Shown: piece by piece, positions 10-38,913 of the stretch | Numbering within the stretch: position 1 is the first letter of the stretch | Layout: each line of letters opens with the position of its first letter | Assembly (NCBI GenBank): GCA_031265365.1 | Contig: JAISCS010000206.1 | Coordinates: 1-43,686 of the forward strand | Reading direction: 5' to 3' | DNA from: Verrucomicrobiales bacterium | GTDB taxonomy: Bacteria > Verrucomicrobiota > Verrucomicrobiia > Methylacidiphilales > JAAUTS01 | Length of the DNA: 43,686 bases | Position numbers and translations under genes: made by a program | The notes under the pieces: model-generated | Databases searched by the model: none | The model's input: the letters and a program-made list of their open reading frames with translations, nothing else | Told to the model about the DNA's origin: nothing

Positions 10-97
10 CACAGAGTAGGCACAGAGAAACACAGGGTTCATTTTTTAGTTTAATAAATCTCTGTGGTTCTCTGTGTCTGCTCTGTGCTCTCTGTGG
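10..97. repeat. Imperfect hairpin of CACAGAG / CTCTGTG short units
   Basis: About three CACAGAG-like units (10-37), an AT-rich loop, then four CTCTGTG units (60-96) in inverted orientation. Confidence 0.8.
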
Positions 98-3979: not shown

Positions 3980-4057
3980 AACCTCGCGCAGAGACGCAGA
4001 GCCGCGGAGTTTTTTTGGGTTAAAAATATCCGCGGCTCCGCGGCTCCGCGCGAGGTT
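3980..4057. repeat. Complete gene-less GAGACGCGG-family hairpin
   Basis: AACCTCGCGCAGAGACGCAGAGCCGCGGA, loop, TCCGCGGCTCCGCGGCTCCGCGCGAGGTT. Confidence 0.85.
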
Positions 4058-4684: not shown

Positions 4685-6391
4685 TTAGGGCGAGAGTTTG
4701 ACTTGCAGTTGTTCTCTGGCGGATTCGATTTTCACTTTCAGCGGGGCCGGGTCTTTGAGTTGGGCCGAGGCTTTGGACCACGCGGCGATAGCTTTTTCGG
4801 TGTCGCCGAGTTTGTAGTAGATGTCGGCGAGGTGTTCCAAGATTTCCGGGTCGTCCGGCTCGCCGGCGATGGCTTTTTGCTGATATTCCAGCGCCTTGGG
4901 GTATTCTTTTTTCTGGTAACACACCCAGGCCATGCTGTCAAGATACGCGGGGCTGGCAGGGTCGAGCGCCAGCGCCCGGAGAATGAGTTGCTCCGCCTCG
5001 TCGAGGTTCTCGCCCCGGCTGGCCCAGTGATAACCAAGATAGTTCAGGGCTGGGTGATGGTTGGGATTCAGGTCGAGGCATTTTTTGAACAATCCGACGG
5101 CCTTGGTGAGGTTGCCGCTTCGGTCGCAGGTGACGGCGTAATCAAAATAAAAATTGATGTCAATCAGCTTGTCGTTTTGTTGTTCCAAGTCGGTGAAGAT
5201 GGCCAGCGCCTCGTCCCAGCGCTCCAGGTTTCGCAGGATGTGGGCTTGGGATAGCTTGAGGATGGTGACGGCGGGGAATTTTTTTTCGGCTTGTTGCAAG
5301 GTGGCCAGGGCCAAGGCGGGCTGGTGGTCGCGCGCCTGGGCGTCGGCGAGGCGGAAATAATCCCGCGCATCGGGATTGCCGAGTCGCACATAAAGCTGAT
5401 AGTAGGCGGCGGCTTGGGCCCATTGGTTTTGGTTGCCGTGTAGCTCGGCAATCATCGGGTAGAGGTTTTTGCGGTCGGGATAATCTTCCAGCAGGCTTTC
5501 GAGCACGGCGATGTTTTTGTCCGGTTGTTTCAGGACGTAGTAACAGATGGACATGCGTTCGCGGAGGCCGGGGAGGTCGGCGGTTTTGTGGTGCGCTTGC
5601 TCGTAGTAACTGATGGCGGCTTGGTAGTTTTCCAAGTCGAATTGCAGTTGGCCGAGGCGGAGGGCGAGTTGCGGGTGGGCGGGGTTCAGCACGCGGGCTT
5701 TTTCGTAGAAGGGCAGGACTTGCGCGGCGATTTCCTTGACCGTGAGCGGTTCGGTCCGGGCGAGCACCTGCGCCCACAGGTCGCCGAGCCGGGCGTAGTA
5801 GACGGCTTGGTCGGTGGTGACGGCCAGCGAGCGCGCCATGAGCGGGGGGATTTCCGCGCGCTGGCGTTGGTCCAGGTAATGACGGGCCAGCAGGTGATAG
5901 ACCGCGACCTGTCGTGGGTTTAATTTTTCGGCGGCGAGGGCGCTGGCCAATGCTTTATCGGGCTGGCCTTGGCGCTGATAAAGCCAGGCGAGCAGCGTTT
6001 TGATTTCGGCGGCGGCGGGGAAACTGGTTTCCTTTTCCCGTAGGAACGCGGTGGCGCGGGGCAGTTGGTCAAGTTTGCAGTGGATGATGGCGATGCGGAT
6101 ATGGGTGGGAAGGTAGCTTGGGTCAGCCGCGGCGGCGAGCCGGTACTTGGCCAGCGCGCTGGTGAATTGTCCCCGGCCCTCAAGCTGGACGGCCAGCGCG
6201 AAGTTGGTGGCGGCATTGGCGCGCCGGCCGAAGTCACTGTCAGCGGAATTGGCGGAGTTTGACGGGACGCGCCCCAAGTCCTGCTCGATGACCGTCAGCG
6301 GGTCGGGGACAAGCTCCTGCGCCACAGCGGCCGGCCAAGCGCCGACCACCATCCACAGGCACACCAAAAGCGGTGACAACCTTCGCTTCAC
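4685..6391 (-). CDS. Secreted/periplasmic tetratricopeptide repeat protein
   Basis: Signal peptide; many TPR-like helices; C-terminal ALNYLGY...YLDSMAW...EILEHLAD pattern. Confidence 0.88.
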   Translation of the reverse strand: MKRRLSPLLVCLWMVVGAWPAAVAQELVPDPLTVIEQDLGRVPSNSANSADSDFGRRANAATNFALAVQLEGRGQFTSALAKYRLAAAADPSYLPTHIRIAIIHCKLDQLPRATAFLREKETSFPAAAEIKTLLAWLYQRQGQPDKALASALAAEKLNPRQVAVYHLLARHYLDQRQRAEIPPLMARSLAVTTDQAVYYARLGDLWAQVLARTEPLTVKEIAAQVLPFYEKARVLNPAHPQLALRLGQLQFDLENYQAAISYYEQAHHKTADLPGLRERMSICYYVLKQPDKNIAVLESLLEDYPDRKNLYPMIAELHGNQNQWAQAAAYYQLYVRLGNPDARDYFRLADAQARDHQPALALATLQQAEKKFPAVTILKLSQAHILRNLERWDEALAIFTDLEQQNDKLIDINFYFDYAVTCDRSGNLTKAVGLFKKCLDLNPNHHPALNYLGYHWASRGENLDEAEQLILRALALDPASPAYLDSMAWVCYQKKEYPKALEYQQKAIAGEPDDPEILEHLADIYYKLGDTEKAIAAWSKASAQLKDPAPLKVKIESAREQLQVKLSP

Positions 6392-6580: not shown

Positions 6581-7462
6581 TCAAAAGACAACCTTATTTA
6601 GCGAATATTCGATAATTCCTTCCGCGCCCAGTTCTTTAAGGCGCGGGATGATTTCACGGACGACGACCTCGTCGATGATGGTTTCGATGGCGACCCAGCC
6701 GGGTTGCGCGAGGGGGGCGACGGTCGGGTTGCGGAGCGCGGGGAGTTGTCGCAGAAGTTGGGGCAACTTCGCGGCGGGGACGTTCATCTTGATGCCGACC
6801 TTGCCGCGGGCGTTGAGCGCGCCCTCGAGCAACAGAGCCAGCGTGTGAATTTTCTTGCGGCTCCAGGCGTCGCGCCAGACCGCGCGATTGGCAATGAGTT
6901 GCGGGTAGGACTCCATCAGCGTGTCCACGACGCGGAGTTTGTTCGCGCGCAGCGAGGAGCCGGTCTCGGTGATGTCCACGATGGCGTCTACCAACTCCGG
7001 CACTTTCACCTCGGTCGCGCCCCATGAAAATTCGACGCGCGCCTTGATGTTGTGTTTGCGGAGATAGTCCTTGGTGATGCCGACGGCCTCGGTGGCGATG
7101 CGTTTGCCGGCGAGGTGCGCGGGTTTGGTGATTTTGGAATCCTCCGGCACGACGAGCACCCAGCGCGCCGGCGCCGAGGTGGCCTTGCTGAACGACAGGT
7201 TTTGAACGACCTCGACCCGCGCCTTGGTCTCGGCAATCCAGTCCTTGCCGGTGATGCCGAAGTCGAGGAAACCTTCGTCCACATACCGGGCAATCTCCTG
7301 CGCGCGCAACAGGCGCACCTCCAGCTCCGGGTCATCCACGGCGGGCTTGTACGAGCGGCTGGAGACGCTGATGTTGAAGCCGGCGCTTTTGAACAACGCC
7401 AGCGTCGCTTCTTGCAAGCTGCCCTTGGGCAAGCCGAGACGGAGAGGTTTGCGATTTTTCAT
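6581..7462 (-). CDS. hisG: ATP phosphoribosyltransferase (long form)
   Basis: [36 protein letters not shown]; C-terminal regulatory domain (LKELGAEGI). Confidence 0.96.
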
Positions 7463-7506
7463 GAAGAGAGAGAATAGATTGTTGGCGGGGAAAGTCCAGT
7501 CGGGAT

Positions 7507-7602
7507 TTTTTTGACAGGATAAACAGGATTGGCGGGATGGTTTTTAGAAACTGTTGTCCCAATCCTTGTTTGGGCCATCCCATGAATCCTGTTCACCCTG
7601 TC
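7507..7602. repeat. GACAGGAT-family hairpin overlapping the 3' end of the GxxExxY gene
   Basis: 7513-7540 pairs with 7575-7602 (23/28 complementary by hand count). Confidence 0.85.
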
Positions 7603-7984
7603 TGATTTTCCTGGGCTGGTAAGTTCGCGTTTTGCGTTTGAATTCCAATTTGACTGCACCGAAGTTCAGCAACAAACCGATTTCAATCTTGGTGGCGGTG
7701 AGATAGTTGACCAATTGCGCCTCATTGGCCGGTGACAAGGTCTGGTTGGCTTTTAATTCTAGCAGCACACAGTCTTCGACCAGCAAATCCGCCGAGAAAT
7801 CGCCAGCCTTCACACCTTCATACCAAACGGCGACGGGATATTCACTCGCAACGCGCAAACCGGACCTCTGCAATTCATGCGCCAGCGCCTTTTGATAAAC
7901 CGATTCCAAAAAACCGGGACCGAGCGCGGAATGCACTTTCATTGCACAGCCAATTATTACTCCTGTCAGTTGTTCGTACTCCAT
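7544..7984 (-). CDS. GxxExxY protein (PD-(D/E)XK nuclease-like)
   Basis: VHSALGPGFLESVY signature, ADLLVE...ELKA, QLVNYL, GLLLNFG; start placed at MEYEQL (7984). Confidence 0.93.
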   Translation of the reverse strand: MEYEQLTGVIIGCAMKVHSALGPGFLESVYQKALAHELQRSGLRVASEYPVAVWYEGVKAGDFSADLLVEDCVLLELKANQTLSPANEAQLVNYLTATKIEIGLLLNFGAVKLEFKRKTRTYQPRKIRQGEQDSWDGPNKDWDNSF

Positions 7985-7986
7985 AG

Positions 7987-8079
7987 TTTTTTGACAGGAT
8001 GAACAAGATTTGCAGGATAACAAACGTTTCCAAAATCCTTTTCAAAATATCCTGTCCATCTTGTTCATCCTGTCAAAAA
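7987..8079. repeat. GACAGGAT-family hairpin upstream of the GxxExxY gene
   Basis: 7988-8019 pairs with 8048-8079 (29/32 complementary by hand count). Confidence 0.9.
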
Positions 8080-8085
8080 TCTCAT

Positions 8086-8745
8086 TTACCAAAACCCCCA
8101 CTGGCCGCTGTGCATCACGTAAATGCCGAGCAACAAATTCGTCACCGCGTGGGCGAGGACGCAGGAACCCTGGCTTTTCGTGCGGCAGGCCACCCAATTA
8201 TACAACGCGCCGGTGATGAGCGCCGCCGCGTAATCCGCCGGCTGGTGCTCCAACATAAACCCGACGCTGACGATGCTGAACGACAGCCACGAAAATCGGC
8301 CAAACGGAATTTTGTCCACCGGCGCGGCGATTAAATAACGCAATAGAAATCCGCGCCAAAACAATTCTTCCACCAAGGGCACTATCACCACCAACCGCAA
8401 AAAACGAAACGTCAAGTTGGTCCAATACAGCGGCGGGGTGTCGGCAAACACATTCGGGTCAAAACCATCCAGCCTCGGCGCACGGCCCAGCCAGACTTGC
8501 GGGGCGACCCACAACGCGAATACCACTATGCCGACGCTGACGGTGAAGCTCAGGTTTTTTATTCCGTTGAACGCGTACCGCCGCCAGTAACGCCACAGCA
8601 GCGCGGCGCAAATCACCGTTTGCAGCGGATAAATCACGTAGCGCGCGTGAACGCCGGCGGGCACGGGCAATAGTTCCAACGCAAACAGGCCGATGAACAC
8701 GGCGAATGGCACCACCAACGCTTGCTCCAATTTTGTCATGCTCAA
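8086..8745 (-). CDS. CAAX prenyl protease-related membrane protein (CPBP/Abi; PEP-CTERM-associated type)
   Basis: Multi-TM; VPLVEELFWRGFLLRY and CVLAHAVTNLLLG motifs. Confidence 0.88.
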   Translation of the reverse strand: MSMTKLEQALVVPFAVFIGLFALELLPVPAGVHARYVIYPLQTVICAALLWRYWRRYAFNGIKNLSFTVSVGIVVFALWVAPQVWLGRAPRLDGFDPNVFADTPPLYWTNLTFRFLRLVVIVPLVEELFWRGFLLRYLIAAPVDKIPFGRFSWLSFSIVSVGFMLEHQPADYAAALITGALYNWVACRTKSQGSCVLAHAVTNLLLGIYVMHSGQWGFW

Positions 8746-10365: not shown

Positions 10366-10471
10366 ACTAGTCGCCTAATCTACCGATTACACGTCATCGG
10401 TCAACATTAAGACGCGACTGGCGGCATTTTCTTTGAATATTTTTTCCGAATGTTGCTATATTTTCCCCTTC

Positions 10472-13400
10472 ATGGCCACCCACGATTTCATCAAACTCCG
10501 CGGCCTCCGCGAAAACAATCTCAAAGGTTTCGACCTCGACCTCCCGCTTAACCAATTCATCGTCGTCACCGGCCTCAGCGGCAGCGGCAAATCCTCGCTG
10601 GCGTTCGACACCATCTTCGCCGAGGGCCAGCGCCGTTACACCGAGACCTTCTCCCCCTACACGCGCCAGTTCCTCGAACGCATGAACAAACCCAAGGCCG
10701 ACAGCATCGAGGGCATCCCGCCCGCCATCGCCCTAAGCCAGGTCAACTCCGTCCGCACCTCCCGCAGCACCGTCGGCTCCATGACCGAAATCGCCGATTA
10801 CTTGAAACTGCTGTTCCCCACCCACGCCGAGCTTCGCAGCCCCGTCACCGGCCAAAAAATCCAGCCGTGGACCCCCGCGCAAATCGTCGCCGAACTCCTC
10901 GCCCGTCACGCTGACACTCAAGTCCTTGTCACCTTCGACCTCGCGTTCTCCGCCAGCATCTCCTGGCCCGCCATCGTCCAAACCCTCCAAGCCCAAGGCT
11001 TCACTCGCGTCCTTTGGAATGACCAACCCGCGCGCCTCGACGACCTGGCAAACGTTACCGCCAGCGCCCCGCTCACCATCAGCGTCATCGCCGACCGCCT
11101 CACCGTCAGCGCCGAAACCCAATCCCGCCTCGCCGAAGCCATCCAAACCGCCCTCCAACACGGCAAAGGTCTAGTCACCATACGACCTATAAGTCCTATA
11201 CGACCCATAAGACCTATAACCTACGCCGACCATTACCTAGACCCCGCCACCCACCACCTCTACACCGCCCCCACCCCCGCTCTCTTCTCCTTCAACAGCC
11301 CCATCGGCGCCTGCCCCGTCTGCAAAGGCTTTGGCCGCACCGTCACCATCGACTACGACCTCGCCCTCCCCGACCGCACCCTCACCATCAGCGGCGGCGT
11401 GGTCAAATGCTTCTCCGGCCAGACCATGCAAGAATGCCAGCGCGACCTCCTCAAAGCCTGCCGCAAACACCGCATCCCCGCCAACATCCCCTTCAACCAA
11501 CTCACCAAAGCCCAGCAAAAATTCGTCATCCACGGCGAAATCACCCCCGGCAAAACCCTCGAACAATCCTATGACGACGGCGAATGGTACGGCGTCAGCG
11601 GCTTCTTCAAATGGCTCGAGATGCGCACCTACAAAATGAATGTCCGCATCCTCATCGCCCGCTACCGCGCCTACCACCCCTGCCCCGCCTGCCACGGTGA
11701 CCGCTTCAAACCCGAAACCACCCTCTGGCAACTCCACGGTAAAACCATCACCACCATCAACGCCACTCCCCTCCGCGACCTCGCCCCGTGGTTCGCCAAC
11801 CTCACCGTCAGCGACGCCTCTGCCAAAATCCTCCTTCACCAAATCACCGCCCGCCTCGCCTACCTCAACCAAGTCGGCCTCGGCTACCTCACCCTTGGCC
11901 GCGCCAGCCGCACCCTCAGCGGCGGCGAACTCCAGCGCGTCAACCTCACCACCTGCCTCGGCACCAGCCTCGTCGGCACCCTCTTCGTCCTCGACGAACC
12001 CAGCATCGGCCTCCACCCCCGCGACACCGCCCAACTCACCAACATCCTAAAAACCCTCGCCCGCCAGGGCAACACCGTCCTCGTCGTCGAGCACGACGCC
12101 GCCATCATCCGCGCCGCCGACCACCTCATCGAACTAGGCCCCCGCGGCGGCGCCGACGGCGGCCACCTCATCCACAGCGGCCACCCGGACAAATTCCAAA
12201 CCTCAAATCTCAAACCCCAAATAAATTCCAACCACAAAATATCAAATTCCAAAACCATCTCGCTCACCGCTGACTATCTCTCAGGCCGCCGCGTCATTCC
12301 TCTCCCCGACAAACGCCGCTCCGTTGACGAACACACGCCGCGGCTTGCTTTCAGCGGCGCGTCCAAACACAACATTCACCACCTCGCCGGCCAAATCCCC
12401 CTCGGCAAATTCACCGCCATCACCGGCGTCAGCGGCAGCGGCAAAAGCACCCTCGTCCGCGATATAATCGCCCCCGCGGTGAAAACAATGCTCTCCACCA
12501 AACCACACCGCCGCCGCGACGCCGGGGCGGTTTGGAATTTGAAATCTGGAATCTGGAGCTTGGTTGGAATTTGCGATCTGGAATTTGGCATTTGCGAGGT
12601 TTTAGTCGTCGACCAAAGCCCCCTCACCCGCAGCGCCCGCAGCACCCCCGCCCTCTACCTCGGCGCCTACGACCACATCCGCCAACTCCTCGCCGGCACC
12701 GACAGCGCCCGCCGCCTCGGTCTCACCCCCGCCGACTTCTCCTTCAACACCGGTGCCGGCCGCTGCCCCCGCTGCGCCGGCGCCGGCCACGAAAAAATCG
12801 AAATGCAATTCCTCTCCGATGTTTTCATCACCTGCCCCGTCTGCGACGGCAAACGTTTCCAAGACCACGTCCTCACCGCCGACTACCGTGGCAAAAACAT
12901 CGCCGACCTCCTCTCCCTCACCGTCAGCGAAGCCATCGCCTTTTTTAACTCCAGCCACGCGAAGGCGCAAACACCAGGTGAACAACGCGCGTGCTTAAAA
13001 ACCGCCGCCGCGCTGCACCTGTTGGAACAAGTCGGCCTCGGCTACCTCACCCTCGGCCAACCCACCAGCCACCTCAGTGGCGGCGAAGCCCAGCGCTTAA
13101 AACTCGTCGCCGAACTAACCGCCGCCCCCCTCAAAAAACTCCGCGGCTCCGCCTCTCCGCGCGAACCAAAAGGAAAACTAATCATCCTCGACGAACCCAC
13201 CACCGGCCTTCACTACGAAGACCTCCGCGTCCTGCTCGGCGTCCTGCAAACCCTCGTTGACCGCGGCCACACCCTGCTAGTCATCGAACACAACATGGAA
13301 CTCGTCAAATGCGCCGACTGGGTCATCGACCTTGGCCCCGAAGCCGGCGACCAAGGCGGCCAAATCATCGCCGAAGGCACCCCCGAACAAATCGCCGTCC

Positions 13401-16291
13401 ACCCCGCCAGCCGCACTGCCCCCTACCTAGCACAAGCCCTTCGGGGAACCGATGCGGACTTCCGAGGAGCCTATGCGGACTTCCGAGGAACCGATGCAGA
13501 CTTCCGAGGAGCCTATGCGGACTTCCGAGAAGCCTATGCGGACTTCCGAGGAACCTACGCGGACTTCCGAGAAGCCTATGCAGACTTCCGAGGAACCTAC
13601 GCGGACCTCCGAGGAGCCTATGCAGACTTCCGAGAAACCTACGCGGACTTCCGAGGAACCTCCCCCGTCCCCTCCCCCCCCGCCATCCAAATCACCGGTG
13701 CCACCCACCACAACCTAAAAAACCTCACCGTCAGCATCCCCCGCCAACAAATGACCGTCATCACCGGCCTCAGCGGCAGCGGCAAAAGCACCCTCGCCTT
13801 CGACCTCCTCTTCGCCGAGGGCCAGCGCCGCTACCTCGACTGCCTCAACAGTTACGCCCGTCAATTCATCGAACAACTCGAAAAACCCCGCGTGGACGCC
13901 ATCACCGGCATCCCCCCCACCGTCGCCATCGAACAACGCGCCACCCGTGGCGGACACAAAAGCACCGTCGCCACCGTCACCGAAATCTACCACTTCCTCC
14001 GCCTCCTCTACGCCAAACTCGGCGCCCAGCACGACCCCGCCACCGGCACCCCCTGCATCCAACAAACCCCCGCGCAAATCACCACCCAAATCAAAAAACA
14101 ACTAACCACCGCCCGCGAACACCTCCTCCTCGCCCCCCTAATCCGCGCCCGCAAAGGCAACTACACCGAACTCGCCGCCTGGGCCGCCAAAAAAGGCTAC
14201 CCCTACCTCCGCGTCAACGGCACCATCACCCCCACCGCCGACTTCAAACCCCTCAACCGCTACCGCGAACACACCATCGACCTAATCATCGCCACCCTCA
14301 CCCCCCGCACCCCCAACCTCCCCGCCCTCATCACCCAAGCCTTAGACCACGGCAAAGGCACCCTTATCATCAGACCCATAGGAACTATCCACCCCACAGA
14401 AACCACTCACAGCACCCACCTCTATAGCCCCGCCACCGGTAAATCCTTCCCCCCGTTAGACCCCCGACTCTTCTCCTCCAACTCCCCCCACGGCTGGTGC
14501 CCTCGCTGCCAAGGCTACGGCACCCTCGCCAACCTCTCCGCCGACGCCACCCTCACCCCCCTCGAACAAGAACAACAACAAGAACTAGCCCGCGAACACC
14601 TCGACGACCTCGCCGCCACCCCCTGCCCGGCCTGCCACGGCACCCGCCTCAACGAAACCGCCCGTGCCGTCCGCTTCGCCGGCCGCCCCGTCACCGACCT
14701 CAACGCCATGACCGTCAGCGCCCTCGACCGCTTCCTCACCACCCTCAAACTCAAAGGCCGTGCCGCCGCCATCGCCCGCGACATCCTGCCCGAACTCCGC
14801 CAACGCCTCCAATTCCTCCGCCACGTCGGCCTCGACTACCTCAACCTCGACCGCCCCGCCCCCACCCTCAGCGGCGGCGAAGCCCAGCGCATCCGCCTCG
14901 CCGCCCAACTCGGCTCCAACCTCCAGGGCGTCCTCTACATCCTCGACGAACCCACCATCGGCCTCCACCCCCGCGACAACGCCGAACTCATCAAAACCCT
15001 CCGCCACCTCCAACAACGCGGCAACACCCTCGTCATCGTCGAGCACGACGAAGCCACCATGCGCGCCGCCGACCACATTATCGACCTCGGCCCCGGCGCC
15101 GGCGTCAACGGCGGCCAACTCATCGCCCAAGGCACCTGGCGCGCCATCACCCGCAACCGCCGGTCCCTCACCGGCAAACTCCTCGGCGCCCCGTTACCAC
15201 ACCCCATGCGCGGCACCCGCCGCAAAACCGACCGGCACACCCAATGGCTCACCATCCCCAACGCCACCGCCAACAACATAAAAAACCTCACCATCAAACT
15301 CCCCCTGGGTAAACTCATCGGCATCAGCGGCGTCAGCGGCAGCGGCAAAAGCACCCTAATGCACAAAATCATCATCCCCGCCGTGCGGAAAAAAATTGAA
15401 ACCAGAAAACAGAAAGCAAAAATTTCAGCTTCCAACTTTCAGCTTTCCAATTTAGTTCAAGTCACCCAAACCCCCATCGGCAAAACCAGCCGCAGCACCG
15501 TCAGCACCTACCTTGGACTCATGGACCGCCTCCGGCAACTCATGGCCCAGCTCCCCCTCGCCAAAACCCGCGGCTACACCCCCGCCCACTTCTCCTACAA
15601 CGCCGGCCCCGGCCGCTGCCCCGCCTGCCAGGGCCAGGGCTTTCTAAAAATTGACATGAACTTCCTCCCCACCGCCTACATCCCCTGCGACCAATGCAAC
15701 GGCCAGCGCTGGACCGCCCCCATCCTCGAAATCACCTACCACGACAAAAACATCTACCAAATCCTCACCCTCAGCGTCGACGAAGCCGTCGAATTTTTTG
15801 CCGGCCAGCCCACCGTCCAAGTCCCGCTGAAACTCCTGCAAGAAACCGGCCTCGGCTACCTCACCCTCGGCCAAACCAGCCCCACCCTCAGCGGCGGCGA
15901 AGCCCAGCGCCTTAAACTCGTCACCGAACTCGCCAGCCTCCGCCTCCAAGAACACCGCCAGCGCCCCGCCACCCGCGCCGCCGGCGCCGGGCGAACCCTC
16001 TATCTGCTGGAAGAACCCACCGTCGGCCTCCACCTCGCCGACGTCCAAAGATTGCTTGAAGTCCTGCACCAACTCGTTGACGCCGGCCACACCGTCATCG
16101 TCATCGAACACCACCTGGACCTGCTCGCCGAATGCGACCACCTCATCGACCTCGGCCCCGAAAGCGGCGCCAAAGGGGGCCGCGTCATCGCCGCCGGCCC
16201 CCCCGAACAAATCGCCGGCAACCAACGCAGCCACACCGGCCGCTACCTCCGCCCCCTGCTATATCTCCCAAAAATCGACGCGGCCAAATAG
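10472..16291 (+). CDS. uvrA: Excinuclease ABC subunit A, double-length (two fused UvrA units) with several in-frame repeat insertions
   Basis: Four Walker A motifs (GLSGSGKS x2, GVSGSGKS x2), four LSGGE signatures, CxxC zinc fingers; start placed at MATHDF (10472). Confidence 0.95.
13439..13661 (+). repeat. 21-bp tandem repeat (10 full units plus a partial) in the uvrA inter-unit linker
   Basis: Consensus TTCCGAG(G/A)A(A/G)CC(T/G)A(T/C)GC(G/A)GAC, encoding FR(G/E)(T/A)(Y/D)AD heptads. Confidence 0.97.
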
Positions 16292-17925: not shown

Positions 17926-18253
17926 TGTTCGTGCGGAGACGCTGAGACGCGGAGAATTTATCAGGTTAAAAAACTCGGTTCCTCGCTGTTAGCAGTGGCA
18001 GCACTGACGTCGGCCTCCCTCCACCGCCCATGCCCTTGCGTGAGCTAATTCCCCTTCCGTGAAGGGGTGGCCGCGGAGCGGACGGGGTAGTTCAGCGTTA
18101 ACAGGAACCTCGCCCCAAACGCTGAACTACCCCGTCGCTCCACGCCACCCCTTCACGGAAGGGGAATTATGCTCCGCTTACCACCCGCCGCTGCCATTCC
18201 ACTGTTCACGGGATAGAACCAAAAATTCATATCTCCGCGTCTCCGCGCGAACC
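17926..18253. repeat. GAGACGCGG-family hairpin whose loop is occupied by a MITE
   Basis: Left arm 17927-17955, right arm TCTCCGCGTCTCCGCGCGAACC at 18232-18253. Confidence 0.8.
17977..18220 (+). mobile_element. Complete MITE copy 3 (244 bp)
   Basis: GGTTC...GAACC ends; flanks AAAAACTC / AAAAATTC (8-bp duplication, 1 mismatch); central ~120-bp palindrome. Confidence 0.88.
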
Positions 18254-18829
18254 TCAAATATTATCCACCACCGGATACACCGTCTCGATATGCTCAAGGA
18301 TGACGTGCATAATCCACGTGTGCAACTCCTGCGCGCGCGCCGTGTTGTCAGTGGGGATGACGATGGCGTGGTCGGACAACTCCCGCGCCTTGCCGCCGCC
18401 CTTGCCCAGCAGACTGACGGTGATAATGCCCAGCTTCTTCGCCGCGCCGAGCGCCTTGATGAGATTCGCCGAGTTGCCGCTGCCGCTGAAGATGACCAGA
18501 ATGTCCCCCGCGTGGCCGAGGCCCTCGATTTGGCGCGAGAAGACGGCGTCGTAACCCCAGTCATTGCCGATGCACGTCAGCGCCGTGACATCCGCTGACA
18601 GTGAGATGGCCGGCAGCGAGCGCCGGTTGCCGCGATAGCGTCCGACCAATTCCTCCGCCATGTGCAGCGCGTCCGCCGCGCTGCCGCCGTTGCCACAGGT
18701 CAGCACCTTGTGGCCGTTCTTGAAACATTGCTCGAACAACGGGAACAATTTTTCGACTTGCGGCAGAAAACGCTCGAAACTCACCACGACTTGTTTAAGC
18801 TCGGCATACTGTTGTTGGACTAATGACAT
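18254..18829 (-). CDS. gmhA: SIS-domain phosphoheptose (sedoheptulose-7-phosphate) isomerase
   Basis: CGNGGSAADA, TCIGNDWGY, FSRQIEG, SGNSAN, QELH. Confidence 0.9.
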   Translation of the reverse strand: MSLVQQQYAELKQVVVSFERFLPQVEKLFPLFEQCFKNGHKVLTCGNGGSAADALHMAEELVGRYRGNRRSLPAISLSADVTALTCIGNDWGYDAVFSRQIEGLGHAGDILVIFSGSGNSANLIKALGAAKKLGIITVSLLGKGGGKARELSDHAIVIPTDNTARAQELHTWIMHVILEHIETVYPVVDNI

Positions 18830-30290: not shown

Positions 30291-30348
30291 CGCCGCGTCT
30301 CCGCGCAAACATTTTAATTTTTTCAAGGTTCGTGCAGAGACGCGGAGA
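30291..30348. repeat. GAGACGCGG-family arms (inverted pair)
   Basis: CCGCGTCTCCGCGCAAAC, AT-rich loop, GTTCGTGCAGAGACGCGG. Confidence 0.75.
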
Positions 30349-30364
30349 TTGGAACCAAAAAACT

Positions 30365-30582
30365 GGTTCCTCGCTGTTAGCAGTGGCAGCGTTGACGCCG
30401 CCCCCCTCACCGCCCCAGCCTTCTGCGCCAGCGCATTCCCCTTCCGTGAAGGGGTGGCCGCAGAGCGGACGGGGTAGTTCAGCGTTAACAGGGACCTCGC
30501 CCCAAACGCTGAACTACCCCGGCGCTCCGCGCCACCCCTTCACGGAAGGGGAATTAAATTCCTCTGTTCACGGGATAGAACC
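30365..30582 (+). mobile_element. Complete MITE copy 5 (218 bp)
   Basis: GGTTC...GAACC ends with a perfect 8-bp duplication AAAAAACT (30357-30364 and 30583-30590). Confidence 0.9.
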
Positions 30583-34878: not shown

Positions 34879-35043
34879 AACTCAAATCGCAAAACTCAAA
34901 TCGCAAAACCATAGGGCAAATCGCAAAACTCGCTGGCGCTAACAAGGCGGACAGCCAAATAGCGCCAGCGACTTTTGGGTTTTGCCTTGTGGTTTTGCGC
35001 TTTGAGCTTTGAGTTTTGAGTTTTGAACTTTGCATTTTGAGTT
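34879..35043. repeat. Gene-less long hairpin of 7-nt-period arms (CAAAACT/CAAATCG vs TTTTGAG)
   Basis: Inner stem TCGCTGGCGCTA/TAGCGCCAGCGA with heptamer-repeat outer arms; separates the DUF47 and pit genes. Confidence 0.85.
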
Positions 35044-38790: not shown

Positions 38791-38913
38791 AAATTCCCCT
38801 TCCGTGAAGGGGTGGCCGCGCCAGCGGACGGGGTAGTTCAGCGTTACAGGGACTTGGCCCCGAACGCTGAACTACCCCGTCGCTCCGCGCCACTCCTTCA
38901 CGGAAGGGGAATT
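38791..38913. repeat. Free-standing palindromic core of the MITE (copy 7, no ends)
   Basis: AATTCCCCTTCCGTGAAGGGGTGG...CCACTCCTTCACGGAAGGGGAATT. Confidence 0.88.

Follow-up and report, generated by a model that had tools for sequence, protein, structure and literature searches.

A GxxExxY nuclease gene framed by periodic inverted arms in a verrucomicrobial genome suggests a type of bacterial mobile element not described before

Background

A gene for a protein of the GxxExxY family (PF13366, PDDEXK_3) lies between two hairpins at positions 7507–8082 of the window, by which we mean the whole 43,686-nucleotide (nt) stretch of verrucomicrobial DNA analysed here, and we find that this gene and its periodic inverted arms very probably make up one discrete cassette, mobile or exchangeable, in which the arms belong with the gene. 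The evidence comes from the enrichment of such arms around GxxExxY genes, from the co-variation of arm sequence with protein phylogeny across phyla, and from alleles of close relatives in which arms and gene are absent together or are replaced as a unit. The results suggest a type of bacterial mobile element that has not been described before. Rather probably it works in the manner of repetitive extragenic palindrome (REP) doublets forming hairpins and their REP-associated tyrosine transposases (REPIN/RAYT), or of miniature inverted-repeat transposable elements (MITEs), with a PD-(D/E)XK nuclease instead of a histidine-hydrophobic-histidine (HUH) transposase; as to its biochemistry, the binding of the arm units, the cleavage site, the joining chemistry, mobilisation in trans and expression by read-through are steps that we infer. 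We see an even chance that the arms are the substrate of the nuclease and that it moves gene-less hairpins as well.

GxxExxY (PF13366) proteins are a widespread family with many copies per genome. In the table of a 2012 superfamily survey (PMC3424549) their function is given as 'Unknown', and the portions of the literature available for search contained no published link of GxxExxY/PF13366 to repeats or mobility, nor anything relevant on the palindromic repeats of Verrucomicrobia or on elements that combine a nuclease with inverted repeats. A preliminary description of the window had proposed that the gene is the autonomous member of a hairpin-based mobile system loosely analogous to RAYT/REP, and the analysis reported here takes up that proposal. 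The window is one whole contig (C196) of the source genome, G000, whose assembly comprises 2.76 Mb in 213 contigs (78% complete, 60% G+C); it was compared with four congeners (G001–G004) and, more widely, within a sample of 41 genomes of the order.

Results

The cassette in the window

The gene was said to lie between two hairpins with directly repeated left arms, one arm being 2 bp from the start codon and another coding for the C-terminal tail of the protein, and every one of these elements was found (Table 1). Hairpins A and B are homologous copies in the same orientation, alike in both arms and in the loop, with a direct repeat (7507–7538 and 7987–8018) that is 88% identical over 32 nt at a spacing of 480 nt and that within 7507–7530 and 7987–8010 matches at 22 of 24 positions, counted by eye. 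The arms of hairpin A are 28 nt long and 82% complementary, those of hairpin B 35 nt and 89%, and the outer arms of the block (7508–7543 and 8044–8079) pair as well, over 36 nt at 81%, which gives the block terminal inverted repeats. Each arm is made of about three ACAGGAT-type units with a period of 9 nt and is bordered by a T-run and, at its other end, by an A-run. The arm of hairpin B stops 2 nt before the ATG, while the right arm and loop of hairpin A code for the last ~20 residues of the nuclease and contain its stop codon. Both hairpins fold better than 200 of 200 dinucleotide shuffles on both strands, with z-scores of -3.0 (plus strand) and -4.6 (minus strand) for A and DNA folds of -28.3 and -28.9 kcal/mol (z -9.1 and -8.5) for B.

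The encoded protein matches PF13366 over residues 5–117 (E 1.2e-39; 135.7 bits, cut-off 22) and TIGR04256, the GxxExxY model (E 6e-41; 139.5 bits, cut-off 35); these are its sole matches in Pfam and NCBIfam, respectively, and no recognised transposase family is among them. Across 31 homologues G24, E27, D66, Q90 and Y94 are invariant and Y30, E76 and K78 are present in at least 90%, a pattern that we read as the GxxExxY motif together with a putative D...ExK catalytic core. The nuclease core spans residues 1–120, and the tail, residues 121–146, is coded by hairpin A; in an AlphaFold2 model the blocks of the core have mean predicted local distance difference test (pLDDT) values of 93–99 and the arm-encoded tail a value of ~59. 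A Foldseek search with the model returned generic PD-(D/E)XK nucleases only (lambda-exonuclease-like proteins, Cas4, MGME1 and Hjc, with template modelling (TM) scores of 0.4–0.5 and a best E of 5.8e-4), and the protein is thus predicted to have the PD-(D/E)XK, or restriction-endonuclease-like, fold; a sequence search of the Protein Data Bank (PDB) with the window protein gave no match at E up to 1. Among related pairs of cassette genes the ratio of nonsynonymous to synonymous substitution rates (dN/dS) is 0.04–0.12 in the six pairs, of nine, for which it was computable, with dS saturated, and these low ratios indicate that the protein is maintained by purifying selection.

Inverted arms around GxxExxY genes

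The genome is crowded with hairpins, so the adjacency of a gene to a hairpin alone proves little: a census of G000 (arms of at least 18 nt, at least 85% paired, loops of up to 120 nt, merged) returned 712 merged local hairpins in 2.76 Mb, or one per ~4 kb, of which 154 have periodic arms and 12 lie in the window. All four PF13366 genes of G000 are bounded by arms of the kind described above, each with a different unit, and the three outside the window, on contigs C41, C37 and C123, each sit inside a split hairpin, that is, an inverted repeat spanning the gene. For the wider samples we took 160 nt on either side of each gene and scored the best ungapped inverted repeat between these two flanks, the position-shifted control being the same measurement with the 'gene' interval displaced by 700 or 1000 nt inside the same loci (118 controls).

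PF13366 genes are present in 27 of the 41 genomes of the order. A score of at least 14 was reached at 23 of 32 PF13366 loci and at none of the 118 shifted controls (control maximum 12; Mann-Whitney p 2.6e-14), and the same 23 loci lie above the 95th percentile of 140 mismatched upstream/downstream pairs. Further PF13366 genes behaved similarly, with 10 of 13 scoring at least 14. Beyond the order, in a cross-phylum sample retrieved with the window protein, 41 of 56 loci scored at least 14 (Verrucomicrobia 21/30, Bacteroidetes 7/9, Chloroflexi 9/12), and 23 of the 56 still exceed the 95th percentile of the mismatched-pair control, which at 19.3 is inflated because many loci share one arm family. 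It is clear from both samples that GxxExxY genes are enriched between hairpin arms, as had been anticipated.

Arm sequence, protein phylogeny and architecture

Arm class co-varies with protein phylogeny across phyla, a relationship that the preliminary description had proposed to test. The closest relatives of the window protein, at 62–78% identity, all have arms of ACAGGAT units, and they come from records titled Verrucomicrobia (several orders), Bacteroidetes, Flavobacteriales, Lentisphaerales and Syntrophobacteraceae, the closest named records being metagenome-assembled genomes (MAGs) of Verrucomicrobia (Limisphaerales, subdivision 3). Relatives in Chloroflexi (43–53%) have CACGAAT arms and those in Opitutaceae (~45%) CACAGAG arms, and the three nearest proteins in the order-level alignment (55, 51 and 46%) show a graded series of arms, ACAGAAT, ACGAAAT and ACATGAA. 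In a maximum-likelihood tree of 77 proteins, drawn from the 121-column catalytic core only (a 127-column version was also built), the 12 arm classes require 19 label changes, where the minimum is 11 and all of 500 label shuffles require at least 43; kinship inflates this shuffle test, and the match between clade and arm nevertheless crosses phyla. The ACAGGAT clade comprises 25 rows, with a Shimodaira-Hasegawa-like approximate likelihood ratio (SH-aLRT) support of 92. One of the six peptides used to retrieve the relatives lies in the hairpin-encoded tail; confirmation and ranking were done on the core.

Two directly repeated hairpins, the form described for the window, proved to be a recurrent variant, the usual form being the split hairpin. 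Within the ACAGGAT clade we see split hairpins (arm, gene, arm), a complete hairpin on each side (the form in the window) and mixed forms, and the two-hairpin form recurs in other arm classes (in G015, G020 and G007). In either form the two arms furthest out make up a pair of terminal inverted repeats, and the open reading frame (ORF) often runs into the right arm, which provides the tail and often the stop codon.

Gain, loss and replacement

The four cassette loci of G000 were searched in the four congeners and in one genome of the same family, and the junctions were aligned. Between hisG and the CAAX gene, where the window cassette lies, the spacer is 60 nt long in G002 and G003, with no gene and no hairpin, and 133 nt long in G001, with one gene-less hairpin of an unrelated unit type; hisG has 80–83% nucleotide identity to the congeners, in which it directly adjoins the CAAX gene, and the latter is syntenic in G001, G002 and G003. 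The position of the C123 cassette, whose neighbours are parB and mutL (translated ends read by eye, no profile), is taken up by 9 nt in G004 and 22 nt in G006, that of the C41 cassette, between genes read by eye as purM and purH, by 21 nt in G004, and that of the C37 cassette by 72–77 nt in G004 and G001. In every empty case at these four loci the arms and the gene are absent together. The cassette is thus an insertion with empty alleles in relatives, as proposed; the single ACAGGAT hairpin that such alleles had been predicted to retain was not found, the empty alleles having either no hairpin or one of another family.

Replacement is seen between G002 and G003, in which the flanks of cassettes are 96.5–97.7% identical over kilobases. 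Their C41-type cassette is only 59–82% identical between the arms, the left arm being nearly unchanged, and the divergence begins just after the left arm and stops at the right arm. A second cassette shared by the two genomes is 48–73% identical with its arms included and returns to 88–100% at the stop and start codons of the neighbouring genes, while a third is 92–100% identical per 60-column window, mostly 98–100%. The cassette is gained, lost and replaced as one discrete block, bounded by the ends of its outer arms, and intergenic operon spacers are hot spots of its exchange between near-identical genomes.

Hairpins at other sites in these genomes are similarly labile. At an orthologous site with 98% identical flanks a CGCGGAG-type hairpin in G003 (locus L216, C31, ~1340–1430) corresponds to a CTCAAAA-type hairpin in G002 (L217, C41), a replacement of one family by another and not an insertion, and at a further site of that alignment the hairpins share a family and differ in their loops; the swap of families between flanks that are 98% identical indicates that hairpins turn over much faster than their flanks. 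Six pairs of G002/G003 loci gave no clean insertion or deletion of a hairpin. Beside some cassettes, as at L020 (G036:C111, upstream of the cassette) and L017 (G015:C164), lie additional half-arms or complete hairpins of a second class, or three or more hairpins in tandem, which look as if one site had been occupied several times in succession.

Gene-less hairpins and the cognate gene

Within the genus, large numbers of hairpins of a given class occur only in genomes with its cognate gene. Double units of ACAGGAT, counted on both strands, number 41 in G000, which has the gene, and 0, 0, 0 and 0 in G001–G004, which lack it, the reversed pattern used as a control being 0 everywhere. The CGCRGAG double unit with a 9-nt period occurs 7, 36, 6 and 28 times in G000–G003, where the cassette is present, and once in G004, where it is absent, and the GCAGAGCCGCRGAG pattern occurs 22, 15 and 22 times in G000, G002 and G003 (present), once in G001 and 0 times in G004 (both absent). 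The counts in the eight gene-present cells and the seven gene-absent cells do not overlap, which agrees with what had been expected of a gene and its dispersed hairpins; the genomes are not independent, G002 and G003 being near-identical and worth one observation and G004 being a small assembly, and this takes weight from the comparison. Outside the window G000 has 17 ACAGGAT hairpin loci that form a homogeneous family, and their arm matches the reverse complement of the outer arm of the cassette (8048–8073) at 25 of 26 positions, counted by eye.

Outside the genus the link between gene and hairpin is looser, and orphan hairpin families exist, as orphan MITEs do. ACAGGAT matches occur in 10 of the 41 genomes and an ACAGGAT-armed gene in four of them (G000, G008, G033 and G038). 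G029 has ACAGGAT matches and no PF13366 match, G018 had one of nine gene flanks read, and one PF13366 gene of G027 lies at a contig end with no readable repeat. In samples of 200 kb, two genomes without either this gene family or PF05635 (see below) had no periodic hairpins and two genomes with genes had 2 and 3, counts that agree with the link and are too small to weigh. Of the gene-less periodic hairpins reported earlier for the window itself, those at 10–87 and 3980–4057 (Table 1) stand, and the one at 30291–30348 is weaker.

Cassettes with PF05635 genes

Genes of a second family, the four-helix-bundle PF05635 ('23S rRNA intervening sequence protein'), are present in 25 of the 41 genomes, and the same four families of the order lack both PF13366 and PF05635. 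At 24 of 30 PF05635 loci (L147–L175 and L067) the gene is flanked by periodic inverted repeats above the 95th percentile of the control; the arms consist of 7-nt units, whereas those of GxxExxY genes consist of 8–10-nt units. G000 has one such cassette (C79:18073–18508), a split hairpin with the gene at 18148–18444 on the minus strand. The element design is common to both gene families, each with its own arm design.

Table 1. Coordinates of the cassette, its neighbours and two gene-less hairpins in the window
Feature	Position	Strand	Remarks
Whole cassette (hairpin, GxxExxY gene, hairpin)	7507–8082	-	between CAAX-protease stop codon and hisG start codon
GxxExxY / PDDEXK_3 nuclease gene, 146 aa, ATG at 7982–7984	7544–7984	-	PF13366, TIGR04256
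Hairpin B, 5' of gene in gene orientation	7985–8082	.	arms 7985–8019 and 8048–8082
Hairpin A, 3' of gene core	7507–7602	.	arms 7513–7540 and 7575–7602
hisG, downstream neighbour, same orientation as cassette gene	6581–7462	-	PF01634 and PF08029; one edge of insertion site
Rce1-like CAAX protease gene, upstream neighbour, co-oriented	8086–8745	-	PF02517; other edge of insertion site
Gene-less hairpin, CGCAGAG/CAGAGCCG class (arm class of C123 cassette)	3980–4057	.	arms 36 nt, 31 matches, 6-nt loop; pattern match C196:3996–4009
Gene-less hairpin, CACAGAG class	10–87	.	arms 26 nt, 23 matches, 26-nt loop

Other repeats of the window and the genome

The window also holds a double-length uvrA-like ORF (10433–16291, 1952 amino acids) with in-frame inserts of the same periodic repeat families at 12203–12265, 12527–12601, 13130–13174, 13442–13670 and 15410–15454, including approximately eleven tandem units of 21 nt, heptads of the TTGGAAT type, a small hairpin of the GAAAGC type and one half of an arm of the CGCGGAG type; these inserts indicate that hairpin and periodic repeats also land in coding sequence with the frame kept. 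At 34879–35022 lies a heptad-type (CTCAAAA/CGCAAAA) hairpin with 63-nt arms, of the design that goes with PF05635 cassettes. No repeat of G000 is more abundant than a ~120-nt hairpin whose arms, of the AATTCCCC...GGGGTGGC type, are non-periodic; it is found at 233 loci, of which 18046–18169, 30435–30554 and 38792–38913 are in the window, and two further large repeat families have 55 and 49 copies.

Elsewhere in G000 three hairpin families are nested at C1:9664–9964, each in the loop of the next, and composite arms joining two families are common (e.g., C113:6748–6893), so that hairpin loops seem to be favoured for landing. This nesting and joining of elements makes single-linkage clustering chain 590 of the 712 hairpins into one cluster; a census of long-range inverted repeats made without a filter was dominated by GC-rich pairs due to chance, and motif classes and periodicity filters were used instead. 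At C183:354–1026 CACGAAT-type arms enclose a 131-amino-acid ORF that reads, by eye and without a profile, like a BlaI/MecI-type repressor; this could be a further cargo, or a gene that just happens to have a hairpin on each side. At the end of contig C9 (1–556) ACAGGAT hairpin sequence is enclosed by an inverted repeat that is perfect over 76 nt and is probably an assembly artefact at a repeat. A Y1_Tnp (HUH) gene at C14:6471–6713 has its own non-periodic GC-rich hairpins at 6091–6150 and 6780–6949 and looks like a REPtron, and about half a dozen more ORFs of ~330 amino acids have weak Y1_Tnp matches and no hairpins within 1.5 kb.

Discussion

Comparison with known systems

Three reports (PMC3337134, PMC3116915, bioRxiv 10.1101/2021.07.10.451892) describe the RAYT as a low-copy gene flanked by short palindromic repeats that are also dispersed without a gene, each RAYT lineage having its cognate repeat and the gene itself not multiplying. 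The GxxExxY gene is likewise flanked by cognate repeats with many gene-less copies dispersed, and repeat and gene lineage co-vary, so that the analogy to RAYT/REP without an HUH enzyme, drawn in the preliminary description, fits. The enzyme itself is different, a 120-amino-acid PD-(D/E)XK GxxExxY nuclease where the RAYT is an HUH Y1 (IS200-like) transposase, as are the arms, with their approximately three tandem 8–10-nt units. REPIN/RAYT systems are moreover described as vertically inherited, whereas the cassette is gained, lost and replaced between close relatives and is present across phyla: the window cassette is absent from four congeners, the closest proteins are found in other lineages and phyla, and replacement is seen at ~97% identity, so that inheritance is not strictly vertical.

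With transposons bounded by terminal inverted repeats (TIRs) and their MITEs the cassette shares inverted terminal arms that bound a gene, numerous short gene-less versions and presence or absence at the arm ends. It differs in having no transposase of a known family and no target-site duplication that could be found, in the single divergent gene copy per arm class in place of several identical ones, and in the internal periodicity of its arms. The cassette system works most like REPIN/RAYT and MITE/autonomous-element pairs and is a member of neither.

Other systems show partial likenesses. In the intervening sequences (IVSs) of 23S rRNA, with their S23p/PF05635 ORF, a small ORF also lies between inverted repeats capable of forming a stem and the unit behaves as a selfish insertion; the cassette, in contrast, lies between protein-coding genes (hisG and CAAX), has an ORF of another family and shows no sign of structural selection on the sense RNA. 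Integron attC cassettes also combine a promoterless small ORF with an imperfect hairpin that differs in sequence from cassette to cassette and has a constant architecture, and the hairpin-gene-hairpin form in the window is the expected product of hairpin-by-hairpin recombination. Unlike integron cassettes, those described here are solitary between housekeeping genes and not in arrays, most GxxExxY copies are split hairpins rather than a gene with one complete hairpin, and no integrase was noticed adjacent to them, none having been searched for. PD-(D/E)XK homing endonucleases exist, e.g., I-Ssp6803I, and there too a small PD-(D/E)XK nuclease is coded in a selfish insertion that it may serve; the cassette differs in having no intron or intein context and in that its dispersed gene-less cognate repeats stay unfilled.

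A possible mechanism

On these grounds 7507–8082 would be one copy of a mobile, selfish cassette with inverted arms of about three tandem 8–10-nt units and a 7-nt core, here ACAGGAT. Its gene, for which no separate promoter is evident, lies in a narrow spacer of a housekeeping operon with the same orientation and would probably be expressed by read-through. The nuclease, probably oligomeric, would recognise the repeated cores of its own arm class and cut at or in the arms or the hairpin that they form, after which host repair or replication would complete excision, insertion or replacement, and the many hairpins that have these arms and no gene would be its non-autonomous derivatives, mobilised in trans.

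Several results weigh against this picture. A 120-amino-acid PD-(D/E)XK nuclease is not known to have strand-transfer activity, and the cassette design itself needs no nuclease, because non-nuclease PF05635 genes sit in the same design. There is one gene copy per arm class per genome and the copies differ, with no sign of recent self-copying of the gene. Orphan ACAGGAT hairpins occur in G006 (21), G021 (12) and G027 (5), where the gene flanks that were read are of other arm classes, G040 has 28 ACAGGAT matches and genes with variant arms only, and the G000 families CGCAAAG, CACGAAT, CGCAGAT and CTCAAAA have no cognate gene in this 78%-complete assembly. Linkage alone would give some co-variation of arm and protein, and the HUH Y1 transposase-like genes of G000 (PF01797 matches) could act in trans. 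Finally, the excised circles that the preliminary description had envisaged did not appear: the only sequencing run that covers this DNA, probably its source and available as contigs only, contains no excision joint, circle or empty allele, and one of its contigs spans 7231–8700 unchanged. Nor could a target-site duplication be defined, the junctions of filled and empty sites having no clear direct repeat and the spacers being too diverged or non-syntenic; at the C94 hairpins, where one was also sought, the flanks are not syntenic in the congeners.

Alternative explanations

The main rival to an arm-specific nuclease is that the hairpins are moved or made by something else, for instance HUH Y1 transposases, host recombination at palindromes or gene conversion among repeats, and that small selfish or accessory ORFs such as GxxExxY and PF05635 merely lodge in their loops and co-vary with them by linkage. 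The PF05635 cassettes (24 of 30 loci above the 95th percentile of the control), the absence of both gene families from the same four families of the order, the orphan ACAGGAT hairpins of G006, G021, G027 and G040, the replacement of hairpins at fixed sites between near-identical genomes with no gene involved and the Y1_Tnp-like genes of G000 would all be at home in such a view. A generic carrier would, however, mix arm designs, whereas GxxExxY genes have 8–10-nt and PF05635 genes 7-nt units; arm class tracks protein clade across phyla, hairpin classes within the genus are numerous only with the cognate gene (eight against seven cells without overlap), and the protein is under strong purifying selection with conserved catalytic residues. 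As for the candidate carriers, none of the Y1 genes of G000 adjoins a periodic hairpin, and the one that has hairpins has its own non-periodic repeat. We consider this passenger role of the gene unlikely. That the cassette arises by chance, from a small gene that happens to lie between two hairpins in a hairpin-rich genome, is suggested by the 712 local hairpins of G000 and the 12 in the window and is rejected by the controls: none of 118 shifted intervals reached the score of 23 of the 32 real loci, and all four GxxExxY genes of G000 are arm-flanked, as are most of those sampled in other phyla, so that this explanation is hardly credible.

A free-standing homing endonuclease, cutting gene-less hairpins or empty sites of its own class with repair from a filled copy through arm homology, would account for the C41-type cassette of G002 and G003, in which the gene was replaced within arm-bounded limits next to a nearly identical left arm. 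The second replaced cassette, though, differs in its arms too, the empty alleles at the window locus have no hairpin to home into, and efficient homing would have filled the 17 gene-less ACAGGAT loci that stand against one gene in G000; homing in this sense appears improbable. If, on the other hand, the arms act in RNA, as a local or long-range stem in the operon transcript that is processed by RNase III and insulates or regulates expression of the cassette, the role of the nuclease would be unrelated to them. In accordance with this, all four cassettes of G000 lie in narrow operon spacers and run in the direction of the genes on either side, whose identities were read by eye, and one source (PMC4990558) describes the layout of inverted repeat and small ORF for rRNA intervening sequences with PF05635-type ORFs. 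A helix selected in the sense RNA would be expected to tolerate G:U pairs, and there is no such excess among the sense-strand arm mismatches: G:T/T:G against A:C/C:A number 21 and 48 in the order sample of GxxExxY loci (28 loci), 49 and 42 in the cross-phylum sample (48 loci) and 24 and 20 in the PF05635 sample (23 loci), with ~15% of arm positions mismatched. This pattern is unlike selection on a sense-RNA helix and fits DNA-level sites or decaying palindromes, and the lack of a sense-strand G:U bias led us to demote the RNA reading, which also leaves unexplained the co-variation of arm and protein, the class-specific bursts of hairpins and the gain and loss of DNA at the arm ends; we regard it as very unlikely.

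Conclusions

The cassette would rather probably represent a REPIN-like system on a PD-(D/E)XK enzyme. We put forward tentatively, and with some doubt, the broader idea that GxxExxY proteins are the mobility enzymes of a large, unrecognised class of repeat elements in Verrucomicrobia, Chloroflexi, Bacteroidetes and beyond, in which each lineage would read its own 7-nt word, three per arm, and move its own cassette and cloud of gene-less hairpins, and which, together with the PF05635 heptad cassettes, may be the source of rRNA intervening sequences and of in-frame periodic inserts such as those in uvrA. If this is true, the GxxExxY family would offer a natural collection of small nucleases whose DNA specificities are simple and can be read. 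PF13366/GxxExxY would gain a concrete, testable role, as an enzyme that has another catalytic fold and serves a repeat system like that of REPINs, with cognate pairs of protein and DNA supplied for binding and cleavage assays. The same view offers an origin for the short-period hairpin repeats that crowd these genomes, and would link the enigmatic 23S-IVS protein family to the same element design.

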